This document shows positions 5,501 through 21,717 of a stretch of 32,041 nucleotides of DNA, piece by piece. The notes under the pieces were generated by a model, which was given only the letters and a program-made list of their open reading frames with translations, searched no databases and was not told the origin of the DNA. Positions within the stretch are counted from its first letter, which is position 1. Each line of letters starts with the position of its first letter. This stretch comes from a virus (lineage: Duplodnaviria > Caudoviricetes). The translations under genes and the position numbers were made by a program. The stretch is taken from positions 1-32,041 of IMG/VR virus record IMGVR_UViG_3300042868_003415; one strand, written 5' to 3'.

Positions 5501-5892
5501 GTGTTTGACTGATTGCTCACATCTACCGACACGCCGTAACCAATGATCACATCGACCGGTGACCCAGCACTAGCAGTGGCCTCTGCACTGGCTGTGACGT
5601 CGTAGATCCGAATCCTGGTGTGCCCAGTGTGCAGGAAGGCAGCCATGGCCCGGATCTGGTAGGCTCCCGCCGCCAACTTAAACTGGTTGGCAGTCAGGTC
5701 GAGGATGAGCCCGTTGGGATCGACGGCAATGGTGTTGAGCGTCCTGGTCGACCAGGTAGTCGCCACACCGTTGCCACCACTAGTGCCCGAGGTCTTGCTG
5801 TCAGTGAGGACAGCCACCTTGAGAGTCAGGCTGTCGACGTCCTTCCTGAGCCTGTTGATCAGGGTGGTGCTGGTCTGGGAATCGTAGCTCAT
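2524..5892 (-). CDS. Long tail fibre, 1122 aa, with collagen-like segment and internal repeats
   Basis: G/T/S-rich. (Gly-X-Y)7 near 5251-5313, several GTVTxV repeats, and three NTGDQ...AVTYxKxQ...LLG repeats. Confidence 0.9.
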   Translation of the reverse strand: MSYDSQTSTTLINRLRKDVDSLTLKVAVLTDSKTSGTSGGNGVATTWSTRTLNTIAVDPNGLILDLTANQFKLAAGAYQIRAMAAFLHTGHTRIRIYDVTASAEATASAGSPVDVIIGYGVSVDVSNQSNTYNDINVRVQPHKDNVYRLEYYISAAGADHLGVAAGLTGIPEIFAICEITRLDTGLTKPSGGSGIQGAPGPAGPVGPAGPPGPAGGGTVTQVSVVTANGVSGSVATSTTTPAITLTLGAITPTSVTASGAISAGATVTGSNLSGVNTGDQVIILSGDRMLTEGSDFLITESGDYILETGDVTGQGTGRIPAVITPQAVTYDKMQYVSATDRLLGRQSAGPGLIEEITCTAAGRAILDDASAADQRTTLGAVPVGPITTSGLTVVTANRLLGRVNSAGAVEEISLGTGISFAGTVLSATGTGGTVTNLTVTPSDGITASVGTSTTTPAISLGLGAITPTSVASTGTVTGTNLSGTHTGTSSGTNTGDQTITLTGPVTGSGTGSFATTITNGAVTYDKIQSTSAIKRLLGSDDTGNSVQEIILGSNLSMTGNTLSASAPGTGTVTSVNADGSTTGMSFTGGPITTSGTLTLGGTLALTNGGTGATSAATALTSLGAYPAANPSGYTSNAGTVTTTSVVTANGVSGTVANDTTTPAITIVLGAIVPTSVAASGTVTGSNLSGTSSGTNTGDQTITLTGDVGGSGTGSFAATIAANAVTYGKIQAVAASSKLLGSTASGTAVAEITLGTNLSMTGSTLNAAGGGGGGTVTSVGVSGAGLGVTNPNTTPVISQSAASSVNDGFMSIAYASKLDGIAAGASVTSVAASGGTTGLSFTGGPITGSGTLIMNGTLNADSGGTGHTAPTVNGLLLIGDAVDEEWDKATLTAGTGITITNGQGSITIAATGSGSGDVVGPSVSVDGDVAVFNGTTGKIIKVGTTTGTGNLVRATSPTLVTPVLGTPSSGTLTNCTFPVAIQNTGITCATARVLGRSTAGTGSVEQLTLGSGLSLSGGVLNAVGTGSGNVVGPSSSGINRIARFVDTTGTEIGPGAWSDDSTDFYGTAGATTMQFGFAWIPAASGAPTGVVSQAGTLTGRVPLYYDTNSETLYVYTSSTWKPV

Positions 5893-8800
5893 TTGTTCTT
5901 ACGTCGAAGGATGCGCTGGGCTTCGTCAAGGCTGCTGGCGATGCCTATGAGGCTGCCTGCGGGGCCGTAGAGGCGAAGTGAGCCCTTGGCCTTGCCTGGG
6001 AGGGCACGGTAGCCACCGGGGAACGAGTAGGCACCGGGCATGGCGGAGTCGGGGGAGGGCATATAGCGGAAGTCCTCGGGCTTACCGTACACCGGGTTCT
6101 TCACAAACACCGTGTTGCCTACGCTCACAGCCTCAGAGCCACCGATGACAGGCTGGTCGGTGCGCTTGTCGTAGAAGAAGGCGTGTTCCTTCGGGTCCAT
6201 TCCAACTGCCACATAGTTCTCCAAGTCATCCGGTATGGATCGGTCAGCCATGATCTTGCCGTCGACCGTTGCCACCGGGAACTTGGCGGACTTGCCCTCG
6301 TAAATCCGCTGCACGCCTGGCTTGACCACAAACTTCGGGTTCTGCAAACGGGTCACGGTATCGTACCCAATGACCTTGCCTGGGCCACCTGCAGCGCCAT
6401 CGGGCTCATGCACAGCAACCACATATTTGCCCGTTCTAAGGAAGGCCGGGATGTCGATGCGTGCGGCCACCTGTGTGCCCGGCTTGATGCTTCTAGCAGC
6501 ACCAAACTTTGCCTTCTTCTCCGAGCTCAAAGCATCGACAGCCTCGGTGTCTGTAGGCGGGTTGGCGAAGTCCTGATTGCGGCCTACATCACGCTGGATT
6601 GTCTCCGGCATATAGCGCTGGCCCTCAACAGAAGCCCCCTCGTCCGGTGCTAGGCCTTCGGTCCAAGTCCAATCCGGCATGAGTCCGGTCTTCTGCGGAG
6701 AAAACACAGTGTCCTCAAGTTTTGCTGTTCGATTACGTTCGCCATGAGGACCGTAATTTAACCAACTGTTTTGACCGCGGGTTTCGCTGGTAATTGCTGC
6801 TATGGCCGGCCCGGTAAATAACCGGACATGAGCTTGCCATGCATTTTCCTCGCCTCGCGCTCGGAAACTTGCGCCTTCTAATCCATGTCCAAACGCATCG
6901 TGAACAGCTCGGAACAGATCGTTTGCCACTACAGGATGCATGACGCCACGCTGATCTGGCCAGGTGAGCCCGGTTGGCTCTAGCATTGGGTTGCCTTTAA
7001 TCTCCGCTCCTGTAATGCCTTCCGTTCCGTAGCCGTCATAAGTGCCATATACAGCCATGCGTTTATTCGCACGAAGGTCACGCATGGCTGCTGATGGATT
7101 CCCCTTATACGGGTCGCTGGAACTATCAAAAAAACTAAACTCGTACCCAGCGTCAACAAGTGCCTGATACTGATCTTTTGTCTGGCGGATCATATCCGCG
7201 TATGCCTCTTGGACCTTAGGGTCTTGAGGTGCGTGCTTCATCTCCGCATACGCATCGGCAAGACGCCGAGCTCGGGCCTCGTCTACTTCGACGTAGACGG
7301 CTTGTCGCCGGTGGGAAATCCCGGCGGCAGCGGCATAAGATCTCGCAACATCCACGAGTCCTGGCGCTGGTCCGGTCGCACCCGCGACATTCGGAGCACC
7401 ATCAAGCGGCGTATAGCTTCCGCGCGGTAGCCGTCCTCCTCGGTCTCCTCCCTGTTCGGGTCGTCCTTGTTCATAAAGTTTTTCTCCCTCGCCTGCTGGC
7501 ATGAAATACGCCAGTCGAGAGGGGGAGTCAATTTGCTTTCGTTTCCATTTCTCGCCTGCCTCCGGCGTGCTTCCGTATCCGGCAGCCTTGTTTGCTTTCT
7601 GCGCTTCGCCCAGTTGCCGGTCGTTCAAGGCAGGCAATTTGTCGAGCCCAGGGAACATGACCTCATGCGGCTCAACCCGTCCCCGAATGCGATCCCAGAG
7701 GGTCCATTGAGCCGGGAAGACAGCAACGCCAAGCTCGTTTGCCCGGCGCTCGTTGATCTCAAGTGCTGAGCGGTAGGAATCCGACATTACCTGGAAGTCT
7801 TTTGGAGTCTCAACCCACTCCACCGACTTAATGTTCGCCGGAGCATTCGGGTTGATGCCGCCTTTCTTGGCTATCAGCGTTGCCTTGCGGCTGCCCATGG
7901 CAGCAAACACGGCCTCATTGACGAATTTCTGGACGCGATCAGCACCGTAGATTTGCGCTTGACCTAGAACGTCATCAATAGTTTTTGCCCGAGTTGCCGT
8001 TGGGTCTGGCAACGAATCCAAGGTGGATGCCATTTCGGCTTTGATGCTCTTGATGCGTTTATCGTTTTTGGCCTTTAGCGTCTTGAGCGTTTTCGGGTCG
8101 TCCTTGTTGATCTCCTCAATGCGCTTACCTTTTTCCTCGGCATTTTTGAGCCGGCGATTGAAAGCCGATGTGGCTTCCTTTGACTTCTTCAGCATCGAAT
8201 TGAAACGGTCGACAACGATGCCTTCAAACCGTTTGCGGAGCTCTGGGTTTCCAAGCAGCTCCTGGCCAAAGATGCGAGCCATGTGGCGGTCCATGGCCGA
8301 TATGGATGCCTTGAGCGGATCTTGCCACACAGATCCAAATGATCCTGTCTTGGTGCCAAACCCTTTGATTTGAGTTGTCAGCTTGTCGACAAAGTCTGCC
8401 CAAGATTCGTTGGATTTTTTGACGAAGAAGTCTGGGTTCTTGGTGAACAACCGAGCGGCATTTACGATGTTCGATATGTCCGCGGTGATTGCAATGCCAA
8501 GGCCACCCTTGCCAGCGGAGATGAACCCTAGCTCCTTTTTGAGTCGTTGGTTCAGCTCCTTCAGGTTTTCTTTAGTCGGGTTCTCTGGGTATAGACTGGC
8601 AAATTTGCGCACATCTTCCATCGAACCAAACCGCAACCGTGCCATCCCCATTTCATTGGGAAGCAACGGAGCATTCGGGGAGAGCATCCCGAAGACAATG
8701 GAGTTGAAGCTGGAAACCTTGTCACCAGGTGTGGGAGCCATTGTCGCCGCCAGCTTGGCTGTCAGCTTGGCGTGCGTGGTCTCTGGCAGGTTTGCTACGT

Positions 8801-11800
8801 CGACCGGATTGGTTTTGAGCCAGAGGAGATCGTAGTACGTGAACTTGCCCTCAAGGCCGCCGGGTATTCTCGCAGGATCTCCAGCCACGTCCGAGGGGAT
8901 GTTTGTGATTTCTGAAAGAGGTCCAAGGTTTTCGACGCCGAATGCTTTGCCGTATTCCTCAAACTCCTTTGGAGTCCAGTCTTTCGGTTCTTTGCCTTTG
9001 AAGTAGATGTTTCCATTTTGATCCCTTGAAACTCCTGGAGCTTCAAAAGATGCACGCCGGGGAAGACCTTCCGCAACTTGTTTTCTGGCCGCCTCCTCTT
9101 CAGCCGGCATGAACCTTACATCCCCCGCTTGTCGTACCGCCCCGCTTTCGACTTGGCCTTCTTGGCCACCGACAGCGCGATTGCGACCGCCTGCTTCTGC
9201 GGCTTGCCGGCCTTCATCTCCGAGCGGACGTTGCTGCTGACGGACTTCTGGCTGTAGCCTTGTTTGAGTGGCATAATCTTTTTCTGCTTTGAGTTTGGCT
9301 TGTTCCTGAGTGTCGAAGATCCCAACGGTTGATCCATCGGGGCCGTACAGGCGGAACTTTCCGTTCTTCGACAAGATTCGATAACCGCCATTCTCATCGG
9401 TGCTGACCCTGGTCTCACCAATGGCCTCTGCAGGCATGAAGTTGAGCTGAGTGCGGCGGTAGCTCGACTGCTCGCCCATGTCGCCTGTCCAGGGGATCTG
9501 AGCCTTAGTGGAGTCGGCATTCTGGATGCGCTCAAGACGCAGATCCTGATAGACCGATCCTCCCTTGCGGTTGGCGACGTAGCCGGCAGTCGGGAAGTTG
9601 ACCATGACGTCCCCCTTCTTGGGAACTGCACCCATGATCTCGTTGAACATATTGCGCTTCTTAGCGCCATCGATGCCTCCACCCAGCGCCTCAGCGGAAG
9701 GCACAGCACCGGTCTCAGCAATGTTCTTCAGGTACACGTCACGCATCGTGGACATGGCCTGGTCGTAGTTGTTGAACAGGCTCTTGTAGGCCGGCTTGGT
9801 GAGAGCCTTGTACATCCGGGCCTGCACCTTGCCCCAGTCGACCACCTTGACGTTGACGCCGCCCTTGCTGTTGATCGAGATGCCGTAGGGCAGGAACAGC
9901 TTCTGGGACTCGTCAAACACGCCAGACTTCCCGGTGGATCCGTAGACCTTCCAGTAGTTTCCTTCCATCAACGTGCCATCCCGGATTGCGGTGGCGATGT
10001 CGATCAGTGTCCTAGAAGAGGATGGTCCGAATATACCGCTCTTTGATACTGCATCGGCCTCGGCCAGGCTAAGTCTTCCTTCGATGACCGGGTTTCCGTA
10101 GGCATCCATGCCCGAGATGCTGGTGCGTTCAGCCTGAGGAACAGACTCGACGACACGCATCGTGCGGTTAGCTATGTCAGCAGTTTTGGCTGCGAGTTCA
10201 GCCTTAGACAACGGCCTGACGATACTGCCATCTGGGGCAGTCATAAACAGGTCCGAGTAGCCTCGGGCCATGATGACCGCATTCTGCTGCGCCTGGGTCA
10301 TCTTGTTGATGTCGACCCGCTGCTCGGTGGGCTCATAGCCCTCCTTCGGAGTCACCAGGTTCTTGATGGCATCCTCCATCCAGTCGAGCTTGATGCGCCG
10401 TCCGTTGGCGTCGTAGAAGGTACGGGCAACAGGGTCGAAACCAGCCTGCAATGCACGCCTAGTGAACCGTTCCGAAACAGCCTCCTTGGCGTTGTTCAGC
10501 GCCATCTCAATGAAGGAAGGAATGCGACCCGGAAGCATCGTCTTCGGGTCTTTGCCTTTGAGCATTTCCTGCGTGTAGTACGCGGCAAACTCATCGGTGA
10601 TGCGTTTAAGAGACTCAACCTTTTGAGCCCGTTGTTGAGCAGGATCAAAAGCATCCCGGAGCTCAGTGCGGATGCGGTCAGCAACCACGCGCCCACCAGC
10701 CGATTGTAGTTTGTCGGCGTACTTGTTAGCGAAGTCGGTGAATTGCCTCTGGAAGTTGGGATCAGCAGAGGCAGTGTCGATGGCTTTAGCCCCAAGCTGA
10801 CTCACCATGTCCTGCGTGATGCGTGCGTGCAGGATCTCATGCGGGAGTGCTTCGGGGCTGGCCTTGTCGACATTAATCAGGATCGTCGGCTTTCCGCTCT
10901 TGATGTTGTCGGGACCGATTGCAACACCGGCATAATTCACGTTCTGCAGTCCAGCAGGGACCGTGTCTGCATCGGTGTGGAAGATGACATCGACTCCAGC
11001 GCCTTCAGCACCTGCAACCTCGGACAGCGCCTTAGTGAGCTGCTTGTTGTTGAGGCGTCCGTACAGGGTGGCGCGTGCCTCGGAATCCTTGATGGTCGCA
11101 GTCTGCTCACCGGCCACCGGGTCAATGTAGGTGAACTGCACGTCGGTGGGACGAGTGTTGAGATCATCCACCGCGGTCTGTCGGACACGCCCACCATTGA
11201 ATGCGTTGGCTTGAACAGCCTTAGCGAGCGTGAACCCACCGTCAAAAACGCCAAAGCCAGCACCGCTGCCAATAGCCGCGGCAACAGCATCGCCTTCTTC
11301 TCCGGTCAATGCAGCGAGGGCACCGCCGGCAACGCCAGCACCTGCCATGGGCAAAAGAATCGTTGCTGCTCCCCTTATCGGAGTCTCAAGGCCGCTCCTG
11401 GCGAGAGCGGTGCCTAAGGCCCGAGCCCTAGATGATGCGCCTTCAGCCGCGGCAATACGCTCGCCAGCCCCCAGAAGGCCGCGCTGGGTCGCCGTAAGGC
11501 TTGGACCACCGGATACAGTTCCAGCCTCACCAACGGTCTCCATGGTCCCTCCTAGGCCCTTGGTTGCAGTGATTGTCTTAGCAACAGTTCCTAGACCAGG
11601 AACATTCATGGTAAGCGGGATGCCAGCAGCCTCACCCAAGGTGATTCCTGTGGTTCCTTTGGCGATGCCTTCCTGCACCGCTTGACCCATCTGCTCGGAT
11701 CCAGTGACTCCGGCAGTGATTCTGCCTGCTATGTTTTCGGGGCCGCGGCCTAGGTTTGAAATGCGTTCGCCAGTGCGTTGGAGAATCTGCCCTGCCCGAG

Positions 11801-12530
11801 GGATTAGCGGGATAGCACGCTGCGCCAATGCAGACGCCAGCTTTCCACCGCCGGCAAAAGCAATGGATGACGGGTCAGCAAGGAATCCACCGACATCAAG
11901 GCCCTCCTGGCTGATTGCTTCCTCGGGAATGCCATAGGCCTGCAAGACATCCTGAGAGGCAGGAACACGCTGGTCTCCTGGTGCATTGGCACGGGCCAAC
12001 TGCCGCTTGATCTCAGCAGCAGCAAGGAAGGCCTCGTACTTGTCGTCGTCGTTGCGGAGCTTTCCGGTAATGTCCGACAGCTTGTTCAGCGCGGTGTCGA
12101 TCAGTCCGCGGCCCATGTTCTCGGCCTTGAGTCTGGATTGGACTGCGATTTCTGCAGCGGTTCCACCGGCAAGCTGCATCGGTGTGACGCCTTCAGGAGG
12201 GTCCATGTACTGCCCAATGGCCTCGCCCAGCTTGTAAGGCATTGAGGCAATGTCCTCCACCGTTTGGACGGCAGCGGTGCCAATGGTTTCCAGTGGCTTC
12301 TCGCCCAGCAGTGGCTTGGTCTTGGATACCTTCAGGTAGTCGAGAAACTCTTGCTTGCTCGGGGTGTAGTCGGTCTGCGCTCCTTGAAACTGCAGCACCT
12401 TGTTATAAGAGTCCTCAGGCGTGGGATCGACTTCGATTCCTCCCTGCACAAAACCGCCTTGCGCCATCTGAGGCGAGGCCTGTTGCTGTGGCTCTTCATC
12501 GACAACAATTCCGCCTTCAACGAATGGCAT
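5889..12530 (-). CDS. Large polyvalent internal virion (ejection) protein, 2213 aa
   Basis: Last and largest gene of the ejection block. A/G-rich hydrophobic N-terminal region, HEILH zincin motif (residue 564), HhH-GPD-like module, HDAFGH module, five [RNY][FY]MP junctions. Confidence 0.9.
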   Translation of the reverse strand: MPFVEGGIVVDEEPQQQASPQMAQGGFVQGGIEVDPTPEDSYNKVLQFQGAQTDYTPSKQEFLDYLKVSKTKPLLGEKPLETIGTAAVQTVEDIASMPYKLGEAIGQYMDPPEGVTPMQLAGGTAAEIAVQSRLKAENMGRGLIDTALNKLSDITGKLRNDDDKYEAFLAAAEIKRQLARANAPGDQRVPASQDVLQAYGIPEEAISQEGLDVGGFLADPSSIAFAGGGKLASALAQRAIPLIPRAGQILQRTGERISNLGRGPENIAGRITAGVTGSEQMGQAVQEGIAKGTTGITLGEAAGIPLTMNVPGLGTVAKTITATKGLGGTMETVGEAGTVSGGPSLTATQRGLLGAGERIAAAEGASSRARALGTALARSGLETPIRGAATILLPMAGAGVAGGALAALTGEEGDAVAAAIGSGAGFGVFDGGFTLAKAVQANAFNGGRVRQTAVDDLNTRPTDVQFTYIDPVAGEQTATIKDSEARATLYGRLNNKQLTKALSEVAGAEGAGVDVIFHTDADTVPAGLQNVNYAGVAIGPDNIKSGKPTILINVDKASPEALPHEILHARITQDMVSQLGAKAIDTASADPNFQRQFTDFANKYADKLQSAGGRVVADRIRTELRDAFDPAQQRAQKVESLKRITDEFAAYYTQEMLKGKDPKTMLPGRIPSFIEMALNNAKEAVSERFTRRALQAGFDPVARTFYDANGRRIKLDWMEDAIKNLVTPKEGYEPTEQRVDINKMTQAQQNAVIMARGYSDLFMTAPDGSIVRPLSKAELAAKTADIANRTMRVVESVPQAERTSISGMDAYGNPVIEGRLSLAEADAVSKSGIFGPSSSRTLIDIATAIRDGTLMEGNYWKVYGSTGKSGVFDESQKLFLPYGISINSKGGVNVKVVDWGKVQARMYKALTKPAYKSLFNNYDQAMSTMRDVYLKNIAETGAVPSAEALGGGIDGAKKRNMFNEIMGAVPKKGDVMVNFPTAGYVANRKGGSVYQDLRLERIQNADSTKAQIPWTGDMGEQSSYRRTQLNFMPAEAIGETRVSTDENGGYRILSKNGKFRLYGPDGSTVGIFDTQEQAKLKAEKDYATQTRLQPEVRQQQRPLGDEGRQAAEAGGRNRAVGGQEGQVESGAVRQAGDVRFMPAEEEAARKQVAEGLPRRASFEAPGVSRDQNGNIYFKGKEPKDWTPKEFEEYGKAFGVENLGPLSEITNIPSDVAGDPARIPGGLEGKFTYYDLLWLKTNPVDVANLPETTHAKLTAKLAATMAPTPGDKVSSFNSIVFGMLSPNAPLLPNEMGMARLRFGSMEDVRKFASLYPENPTKENLKELNQRLKKELGFISAGKGGLGIAITADISNIVNAARLFTKNPDFFVKKSNESWADFVDKLTTQIKGFGTKTGSFGSVWQDPLKASISAMDRHMARIFGQELLGNPELRKRFEGIVVDRFNSMLKKSKEATSAFNRRLKNAEEKGKRIEEINKDDPKTLKTLKAKNDKRIKSIKAEMASTLDSLPDPTATRAKTIDDVLGQAQIYGADRVQKFVNEAVFAAMGSRKATLIAKKGGINPNAPANIKSVEWVETPKDFQVMSDSYRSALEINERRANELGVAVFPAQWTLWDRIRGRVEPHEVMFPGLDKLPALNDRQLGEAQKANKAAGYGSTPEAGEKWKRKQIDSPSRLAYFMPAGEGEKLYEQGRPEQGGDRGGRLPRGSYTPLDGAPNVAGATGPAPGLVDVARSYAAAAGISHRRQAVYVEVDEARARRLADAYAEMKHAPQDPKVQEAYADMIRQTKDQYQALVDAGYEFSFFDSSSDPYKGNPSAAMRDLRANKRMAVYGTYDGYGTEGITGAEIKGNPMLEPTGLTWPDQRGVMHPVVANDLFRAVHDAFGHGLEGASFRARGEENAWQAHVRLFTGPAIAAITSETRGQNSWLNYGPHGERNRTAKLEDTVFSPQKTGLMPDWTWTEGLAPDEGASVEGQRYMPETIQRDVGRNQDFANPPTDTEAVDALSSEKKAKFGAARSIKPGTQVAARIDIPAFLRTGKYVVAVHEPDGAAGGPGKVIGYDTVTRLQNPKFVVKPGVQRIYEGKSAKFPVATVDGKIMADRSIPDDLENYVAVGMDPKEHAFFYDKRTDQPVIGGSEAVSVGNTVFVKNPVYGKPEDFRYMPSPDSAMPGAYSFPGGYRALPGKAKGSLRLYGPAGSLIGIASSLDEAQRILRRKNK
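7283..7474 (-). CDS. Putative nested gene, 63 aa (MNKDDPNREETEEDGYRAEAIRRLMVLRMSRV...), +1 frame inside the ejection gene
   Basis: Start context AGAAAAACTTTATG mirrors the 9274 nested gene. It overlays a low-complexity linker and has TTGACT-N17-TATTTC upstream. Confidence 0.5.
   Translation of the reverse strand: MNKDDPNREETEEDGYRAEAIRRLMVLRMSRVRPDQRQDSWMLRDLMPLPPGFPTGDKPSTSK
7503..7531 (-). promoter_or_regulatory. Possible internal promoter TTGACT-N17-TATTTC
   Basis: -35 at 7531-7526 (5/6 consensus), -10 at 7508-7503 (imperfect), 28 nt upstream of nested ATG 7474. Confidence 0.3.
9116..9274 (-). CDS. Nested gene, 52-aa basic protein (MPLKQGYSQKSVSSNVRSEMKAGKPQKQAVAIALSVAKKAK...), +1 frame inside the ejection gene
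   Basis: Matches the widespread small phage protein pattern MPLKKGxSxKxISxNIxxExxxGKPQKQAVAIALS. Start context AGAAAAAGATTATG. Confidence 0.85.
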   Translation of the reverse strand: MPLKQGYSQKSVSSNVRSEMKAGKPQKQAVAIALSVAKKAKSKAGRYDKRGM

Positions 12531-21238: not shown

Positions 21239-21487
21239 TTACTTCCAGGATTTGCAGGCCCAGTACTTGGCGGAGAGTTTGGTGCCGGGGTTGTCGCAGC
21301 CGTGACGGGCGTTGAAGCTCTTCTTGTTATCCGGGATGTGCTTCTTGATGGTCATGCCCGGGTCGCCGAAACGCACCAGGGCAACCTTGCCGTTTTCCTT
21401 AGCGAGCACCGCGGACTTCTTGCTTTCGCCGGGGGTGGCCTTGGGCTTGTTATAGCCCGAGAACTTGTTTCCCTTGTAGTTGATCAT
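21239..21487 (-). CDS. Conserved basic phage protein, 82 aa (VRFGDP...SFNARHGC...SAKYWACKSW)
   Basis: Familiar FG..ARH.C..YW.C..W pattern of unknown function; ATGA-coupled start at 21487. Confidence 0.85.
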   Translation of the reverse strand: MINYKGNKFSGYNKPKATPGESKKSAVLAKENGKVALVRFGDPGMTIKKHIPDNKKSFNARHGCDNPGTKLSAKYWACKSWK

Positions 21488-21717
21488 TGGCTCTTCGGTA
21501 AAACATACCAACCTGCCGGCAGAGTGACGGTGGATGGCCCGACCAGCTTCTTATCGGCATCGAAAGCATAGACGCTGGCCGTTGTAGGCTTGGCCAGCAT
21601 TACCGGATCACCGCTTGGAACCAGGACCACCCTGGTCATCTGGCAACCCAGGCAGATCGGCAACACGAGCAGCCAGATCATCCTTGAGGGGTTGAGGCGC
21701 TTGGCCGTGTTGAACAT
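21484..21717 (-). CDS. Lipoprotein, putative o-spanin
   Basis: Basic n-region, hydrophobic IWLLVLPI and lipobox-like CLGC; starts within the upstream ORF in another frame. Confidence 0.65.
   Translation of the reverse strand: MFNTAKRLNPSRMIWLLVLPICLGCQMTRVVLVPSGDPVMLAKPTTASVYAFDADKKLVGPSTVTLPAGWYVLPKSQ

Follow-up and report, generated by a model that had tools for sequence, protein, structure and literature searches.

A conserved small phage gene nested in the +1 frame of a giant polyvalent-protein gene

Can a stretch of DNA that a giant phage protein reads as a linker also be a gene in its own right, and if so, how did one gene come to enclose the other? The question is raised by a 32,041-nucleotide stretch (hereafter the window), a 32-kb virus record rated 86% complete, in which an open reading frame (ORF) running from ATG 9274 to TAA 9116 on the minus strand (9116..9274) is contained entirely within a 2,213-aa ORF at 5889..12530 (-), in the +1 frame over host residues 1086-1139. 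Our answer, in which we have good confidence, is that the ORF is a small phage gene of old standing, whose likely product, begun at its own internal start codon, is a basic protein of 52 aa with a probable place inside the head; in the giant polyvalent protein, the same DNA encodes what is predicted to be a disordered linker.

A small phage gene within a giant one

In the window, genes for terminase, an SU10-type major capsid protein, scaffold and tail lie on the same strand and in the same run as the giant gene, and the sequencing runs containing the stretch are mostly lake and freshwater metagenomes. A search of the GenBank phage set found no cultured or annotated close relative and only short matches to the small gene. 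Two matches came from bacterial genome bins, labelled Verrucomicrobiota and Gammaproteobacteria, and both loci are nested; the two labels disagree, and the bins may contain binned phage contigs.

Translation of the nested ORF gives exactly the 52-aa peptide reported in an earlier sequence-only reading of this DNA, and the peptide is basic (pI 10.7; 13 K/R, 2 D/E). That reading had also assigned it to a family of stand-alone phage genes, and homology searches bore this out. In a profile search, residues 1-45 of 52 matched PHROG 2423 with most of the model covered (E = 2.9e-19), and 2,543 of 2,632 candidates, 28-91 aa long, were homologues of this type, stand-alone phage proteins among them. The nested peptide has the MPL..G...GKPQKQAVAIA pattern common to PHROG 2423 proteins, and differs from them in a C-terminal extension that reaches the host cassette junction and in its setting, since among the best 80 viral loci with the family (a scan of 7 of 64 parts) 73 are un-nested and 7 are nested in a long host frame. 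When loci were fetched by the upstream host domain alone, and not by the peptide, the nested ORF was intact in 17 of 17; this, together with the PHROG 2423 match and the 2,543 homologues, marks the ORF as more than a chance occurrence. The expectation that standard annotation would miss the gene mostly held, although near-identical peptides were called on some short contigs (P0002-P0014).

Neither Pfam nor NCBIfam gave a match to the nested peptide. Weak matches to DUF6496 (PF20106) were found by Pfam in 26 of 80 homologues (best E = 8e-4) and not in the nested peptide itself, and the atlas cluster with the nested-peptide family is 11% DUF6496. An AlphaFold model of the peptide contains two predicted helices (residues 9-22 and 24-51; mean pLDDT 79); fold searches with this model returned no structural match, the best (Z 4.8) being to generic helices, which is not proof of a new fold.

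The PHROG 2423 domain also occurs within 544 longer proteins and is N-terminal in most of the 31 scanned. It forms the N-terminus of P0201, P0205, P0211, P0228, P0144, P0153 and P0193 (187-995 aa), which have variable low-complexity middles and a common C-terminal domain. In longer proteins the domain gives a weak match to the N-terminus of the head maturation protease family phrog_3778, and it might act there as a head-targeting tag. Around stand-alone homologues, 30 of 55 loci have a capsid, terminase, portal, adaptor or virion-protein gene as neighbour (84 of 118 flanking ORFs scanned). A second small basic gene, of about 80-90 aa, lies at 21239-21511 (-) in the window and has homologues in 18 of the 73 stand-alone PHROG 2423 loci, and the pair suggests a set of small basic head-region genes. 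As for the nested product, the function that we propose on charge and neighbours only is that of a DNA- or capsid-binding internal head protein, made along with the giant protein, and we regard the chances of this as roughly balanced.

Conservation of the two frames and their relative age

Wider searches yielded 216 redundant locus rows with the host core, the window included. The gene is nested in 200, always in the +1 frame, lies past the host stop in 10 and is missing from 6, of which 3 are cut by contig ends. After exclusion of two loci cut inside the gene, the nested rows represent 100 distinct variants. All 100 start with ATG; one row tallied as a CAG start reflects an anchor placed one codon early on a 45-aa deletion type. 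The stop stands at the same place throughout, as TAA in 42 variants, TGA in 34 and TAG in 24, and the peptide is 52 or 56 aa long in 97. In the 45-aa type (L212, L213, L219), in-frame deletions remove part of the conserved second helix and leave start and stop in place. A host stop within the overlap was seen in 0 of 100 variants.

Substitutions follow the nested frame. For 91 distinct sequences, compared over their first 38 codons, the nested frame had a pN/pS of 0.21 and the host frame one of 2.4; an upstream control of 36 host codons gave 0.13 in the host frame. Variable columns numbered 10, 8 and 27 at the successive nested codon positions. Alleles silent in the peptide but not in the host were seen in 50 of 70 cases and those silent only in the host in 23 of 87 (p = 3e-8), and peptide-silent alleles creating a host stop in 0 of 8 (p = 1e-4), although the sequences are related and these p-values overstate their independence. 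One nested-stop allele was also counted, most likely an artefact of the offset row. When the host gene was scanned over its full length, only 3 of 146 segments had, with enough data, more first-position than third-position variation, and all 3 cover residues 1081-1140, that is, the nested gene. Purifying selection acts on the nested frame, on its start and stop as well as its amino acids; the host frame is maintained as an open one, with no conservation of its sequence. The earlier reading had proposed testing related genes for suppressed synonymous variation and for an ATG and stop conserved in the +1 frame; both ATG and stop are conserved, and the +1 frame is unbroken in all 100 variants. 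Among stand-alone homologues, 14 of 73 have an open -1 frame; the family tolerates being read through, but an open host frame in every nested variant requires selection.

Of 32 near-complete nested genomes, 31 have no copy besides the nested one, and the other has two, both nested. In one 44-kb record (G020; L001 and L128), two giant-gene segments that differ in their cassettes each contain a nested copy, for which terminal redundancy, duplication and chimerism are candidate readings. At 7283-7474 (-), a 63-aa ATG ORF occupies the +1 frame where the host protein is rich in Gly and Arg; as a candidate second nested gene it is unsupported, with no inverted codon pattern (2-5 sequences per segment) and no PHROG match.

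Which of the two frames came first can be judged from their homologues. The host-frame reading (9111..9275, minus strand; residues 1086-1140) is a linker, as the earlier reading had described it, and is predicted in the model to be disordered coil (pLDDT about 27-45). As a peptide it has no PHROG match; among longer proteins it had 149 hits, of which those listed (120) are long proteins or fragments 66-94% identical to it, and it was found only in the giant-protein family. Because the nested frame has 2,543 homologues and the host-frame peptide is limited to one family, the distribution of homologues shows the small gene to be the older frame and, by this measure, the host linker to be de novo. 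Classical overprinting, in which the small inner frame would be the de novo one, was rejected, since it is the host frame that is restricted.

The host gene and expression of the nested gene

The giant gene encodes a phage-type polyvalent protein with a conserved core, swappable cassettes and a terminal module. Its core contains a HEILH (HExxH) zinc-metallopeptidase-like motif at 10827..10841 (-; residues 564-568), in which H, E and H, together with a later E, are invariant in 74 aligned rows, and which at motif level only points to a zincin-like metallopeptidase domain. The 55-residue terminal module occurs twice, with 47% identity over 34 aa: the first copy, TM1 (9276..9443, minus strand; residues 1030-1085, NFMP...RLYGPDG), lies immediately 5' of the nested ATG, and the second, TM2 (5892..6068, minus strand; residues 2155-2213), is at the C-terminus. 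Between the nested gene and TM2 lie three cargo cassettes on the same strand, the first at 7509..9104 (residues about 1143-1674), which in L265 stands directly after TM1 with no nested gene, the second at 6618..7508 (from YFMP, residue 1675; phrog_3170 at residues 1868-1961), and the third at 6069..6617 (from RYMP, residue 1972; a weak phrog_586 / PF25735 match under the curated cut-off). Junction motifs of the form [RNY][FY]MP are found at residues 1030, 1139, 1675, 1972 and 2155 (window 9443, 9116, 7508, 6617 and 6068, minus strand) and read RFQP in a sister clade; such a motif could be a site at which the giant protein is cleaved by its own HExxH peptidase, or a joint left by recombination. 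The RFMP junction at 9105..9116 (-; residues 1139-1142) contains ATG 9110, and the cassette that follows it is variable among relatives, with 39 different 12-residue strings, some differing slightly, past the nested gene in the 100 variants.

Polyvalent effector cassettes scored above cut-off in 5 of 20 relatives scanned (ART-PolyVal in L007, L117 and L212; PBECR5 in L082 and L139), and the window's own giant protein has no Pfam polyvalent domain above cut-off. The best viral structural matches to the giant-protein model are large polyvalent proteins; a host fragment searched against solved structures gave nothing at E <= 0.001, and no significant match to solved ejection proteins. The host resembles the polyvalent proteins described in PMC5512222 in its giant multi-domain build, its place among late structural genes, its HExxH motif and, in its relatives, the ART-PolyVal and PBECR5 cassettes. 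Polyvalent proteins have been predicted to be packaged and injected (Iyer et al., 2017; PMC5512222), and by analogy with that prediction and from the position of its gene, the giant protein is likely packaged in the virion and ejected. The words 'linker' and 'overlap' are absent from the main text of that paper, which does not describe nested genes.

The predicted initiation region of the nested gene, at 9275..9304 (-), is A-rich and weakly folded, with no Shine-Dalgarno motif seen. Within it, 7 of 9 host codons are rare A-ending synonyms (1.8 expected), and the same enrichment was seen in each of the 6 variants tested, which came from both core clades. The 25 nt upstream of the nested ATG are 52% A, above all 117 other ATGs in the host gene, and folding at the start (-4.9 kcal/mol) is weaker than at all but 1 of the host-gene internal ATGs (median -12.0). 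The 20 real starts in the window fold mostly at -3 to -8 and have no obvious Shine-Dalgarno motif. Gene starts in the window stand in weakly folded sequence, a few bases past the upstream stop. The host codon under the nested ATG is always GAT or TAT and never the commoner GAC or TAC. A search for sigma-70 promoters across 8800-9900 found none, and in each of 4 runs parts of the region are covered by contigs from RNA libraries, which show neither frame, strand nor level and may contain DNA. From the start region we infer that the nested product is made by internal initiation on late mRNA, with ribosomes starting at ATG 9274 in A-rich, unstructured sequence that has no Shine-Dalgarno motif, as at other starts in the window.

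The sequence-only reading had gone further and suggested that ribosomes finishing at the nested TAA re-initiate at ATG 9110, an in-frame codon for Met1141 of the giant protein, and so release the C-terminal cassettes as a separate protein. We consider this unlikely. The 5-nt gap does resemble intergenic spacing in the window genome, and 73 of 100 variants have an in-frame ATG at +5 or +11 nt; however, the ATG stands 5 nt past the nested stop in only 58, and in the 27 with none at either position the next in-frame ATG is mostly at least 47 nt away. Folding at 9110 (-11.2) is near the internal-ATG median of -12.0, so that the site is structured, and Met1141 belongs to a junction motif that occurs five times, mostly without a preceding nested stop, and that reads RFQP in the sister clade. 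Re-initiation at 9110 was therefore rejected as a conserved feature.

Alternatively, a programmed +1 frameshift from the host frame could produce a short form of the giant protein, consisting of the core and TM1 with a basic tail, in place of a free 52-aa protein. In the window genome the +1 frame is open for ~150 codons upstream of 9274 (201 aa from TTG 9721), A runs are abundant in this upstream tract, and a few longer predicted proteins have the PHROG 2423 domain C-terminally (P0139, P0237, P0142, P0131, P0124). Among relatives, however, this upstream open stretch is anywhere from <10 to about 150 codons long, its codon pattern is not inverted, the domain begins at residue 1 in most longer homologues scanned, the start region is like that of real starts, and the ATG is kept in 100 of 100 variants, even at the host-silent base. 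We regard frameshifting as improbable, and internal initiation at 9274 as the preferred reading.

Separate, nested and absent states

In 10 of 11 loci of a sister clade, whose core is 28% identical, the small gene stands alone behind TM2, 4-31 nt past the giant gene's stop. The giant genes of L265, L273 and L287 lack it; two of these records, rated 100% complete, have no family match anywhere in the record, so that the gene is dispensable in some lineages. The sister-clade arrangement directly supports the proposal that the giant gene absorbed a former downstream neighbour; the order of events is less clear-cut, since the data fit a lost stop with read-through as well as an insertion into a linker. 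Because the gene follows a copy of the terminal module in both arrangements, we favour a route in which a gene once located downstream was enclosed, perhaps when the terminal module had been duplicated; insertion into the linker and an ancestrally nested state are the less favoured alternatives. On the favoured route, the gene would once have stood just behind a terminal module that ended the giant gene, and would have been enclosed when cargo cassettes were joined downstream by read-through, for example after module duplication. No relative was found whose giant gene stops at TM1 and is followed by the small gene, and a terminal-module tree did not separate TM1 from TM2 (support 19).

On the host-core tree, the stand-alone clade groups with the window's clade, and the gene-less clade groups with the other nested clade. 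A single clade of all nested carriers was rejected (p-AU 4e-8; 14 rows, in a tree where long branches meet). Nested DNA is 85% identical between two distant core clades and 85-87% within them, which points to sideways exchange, and the nested segment may have spread by recombination among distant core lineages after its enclosure. The tree is fitted equally well by a gene that was ancestrally nested and later lost or moved out as by one origin with sideways spread. The shared nested stretch may possibly give rise to chimeric assemblies instead; assembly graphs branch in the nested gene, and some of the core-cassette mosaics may for this reason be chimeras.

This equal identity, and the change of cassettes directly past the nested gene, would also be expected if the gene were a silent remnant, its DNA alike only as a shared recombination anchor for cassette swaps. 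Homogenisation would not favour nested third positions, yet these hold 27 of the variable columns against 10 and 8, and neither a pN/pS of 0.21 nor three different stop codons at one place speaks for silence; we hold this reading to be highly improbable. An error of assembly or sequencing that fused separate genes, a doubt raised in the earlier reading, is suggested by the branching graphs and by a frameshift just 3' of the nested gene in L193, but we give it next to no credence, since both frames are kept in 100 distinct variants with two junction types and length changes in multiples of three only, and contigs from other studies span both the ATG junction (X3 record 14, X16 record 9) and the stop junction (X15 record 1, X18 record 15). 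In L193 itself (6316-6336), the host frame stops 6 codons past the nested stop and a partial cassette goes on in another frame; this is a single contig, with either an error or a broken gene.

Scanning the giant genes of 30 relatives, we found other segments in which the codon pattern inverts at cassette tails, with +1 ORFs that end just before the junction. Candidates in cargo cassettes are L168:9315-9557, L272:9402-9689, L191:8898-9176 and L188:9954-10175. Among cassette-tail candidates, two had lower pN/pS in the nested frame than in the host frame (0.15 vs 0.91 in 7 sequences; 0.24 vs 0.76 in 2 sequences), and two others were unsupported in the stretch tested (0.88 nested vs 0.22 host; 1.25 vs 0.66). 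Because a +1 stop can arise simply from a Val codon of the host frame with a purine after it, these ORFs are only leads. They allow a broader view, which we offer tentatively and think slightly more apt to fail than to hold: the giant gene would be a hidden operon whose linkers are engulfed small genes, in which cassettes can travel with their own +1 passenger ending at RFMP, and in which the PHROG 2423 gene is fixed at the hinge between core and cargo and also serves as shared DNA for cassette exchange. The engulfment of one gene by another would then be directly on record in the family, where a single pair of genes is kept in separate, nested and lost states.

Among known systems, Rz1 of lambda likewise lies wholly in the +1 frame of a larger gene, Rz, over a flexible linker, as described in PMC6139136. 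According to that account, separated and embedded layouts both exist among spanins, stop-loss extension has been proposed as one route between them, and the survey reports no family with both embedded and separated members. The giant-gene family, in contrast, is not composed of lysis genes, has no known partnership between the two products, and presents nested, separate and absent states. An embedded spanin was rejected, as inspection of sequence and context by eye found no membrane anchor with a lipoprotein signal in a lysis cassette. The spacer of the hepatitis B virus (HBV) polymerase is similar in that a de novo frame across an older short gene became a linker joining domains into one protein (Pavesi, 2021; PMC8227390). 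The history of the spacer, as presented there, is inferred from codon usage, whereas here the un-nested state is seen in relatives, the virus is a dsDNA phage and the downstream modules are swappable. ShiLan, as described in PMC11855218, is also a member of a known family lying out of frame in a phage gene, over an in-frame poorly structured loop, and present or absent among relatives. It is a homing endonuclease with its own means of spread, whereas the nested peptide lacks a nuclease motif and persists throughout whole clades; a ShiLan-type homing element was rejected, the ORF encoding a 52-aa helical basic peptide that has no Pfam or NCBIfam match and is not an endonuclease. In the open-licence literature we found no description of the PHROG 2423-type family or of genes nested in the linkers of polyvalent proteins.

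The nested gene is real; this kind of arrangement is known, and the variant is new. Most described nested viral genes are new inner frames on old genes, whereas here the inner gene is old and the outer frame new. The separate, nested and absent states in this family likely record how one gene came to enclose another, and such relatives make the route from separated to embedded testable by comparison. Low-complexity 'linkers' of giant phage virion proteins can be shifted readings of real genes that are dropped by gene callers, so that conserved small proteins go missing from counts of phage genes and escape searches of virion proteomes.
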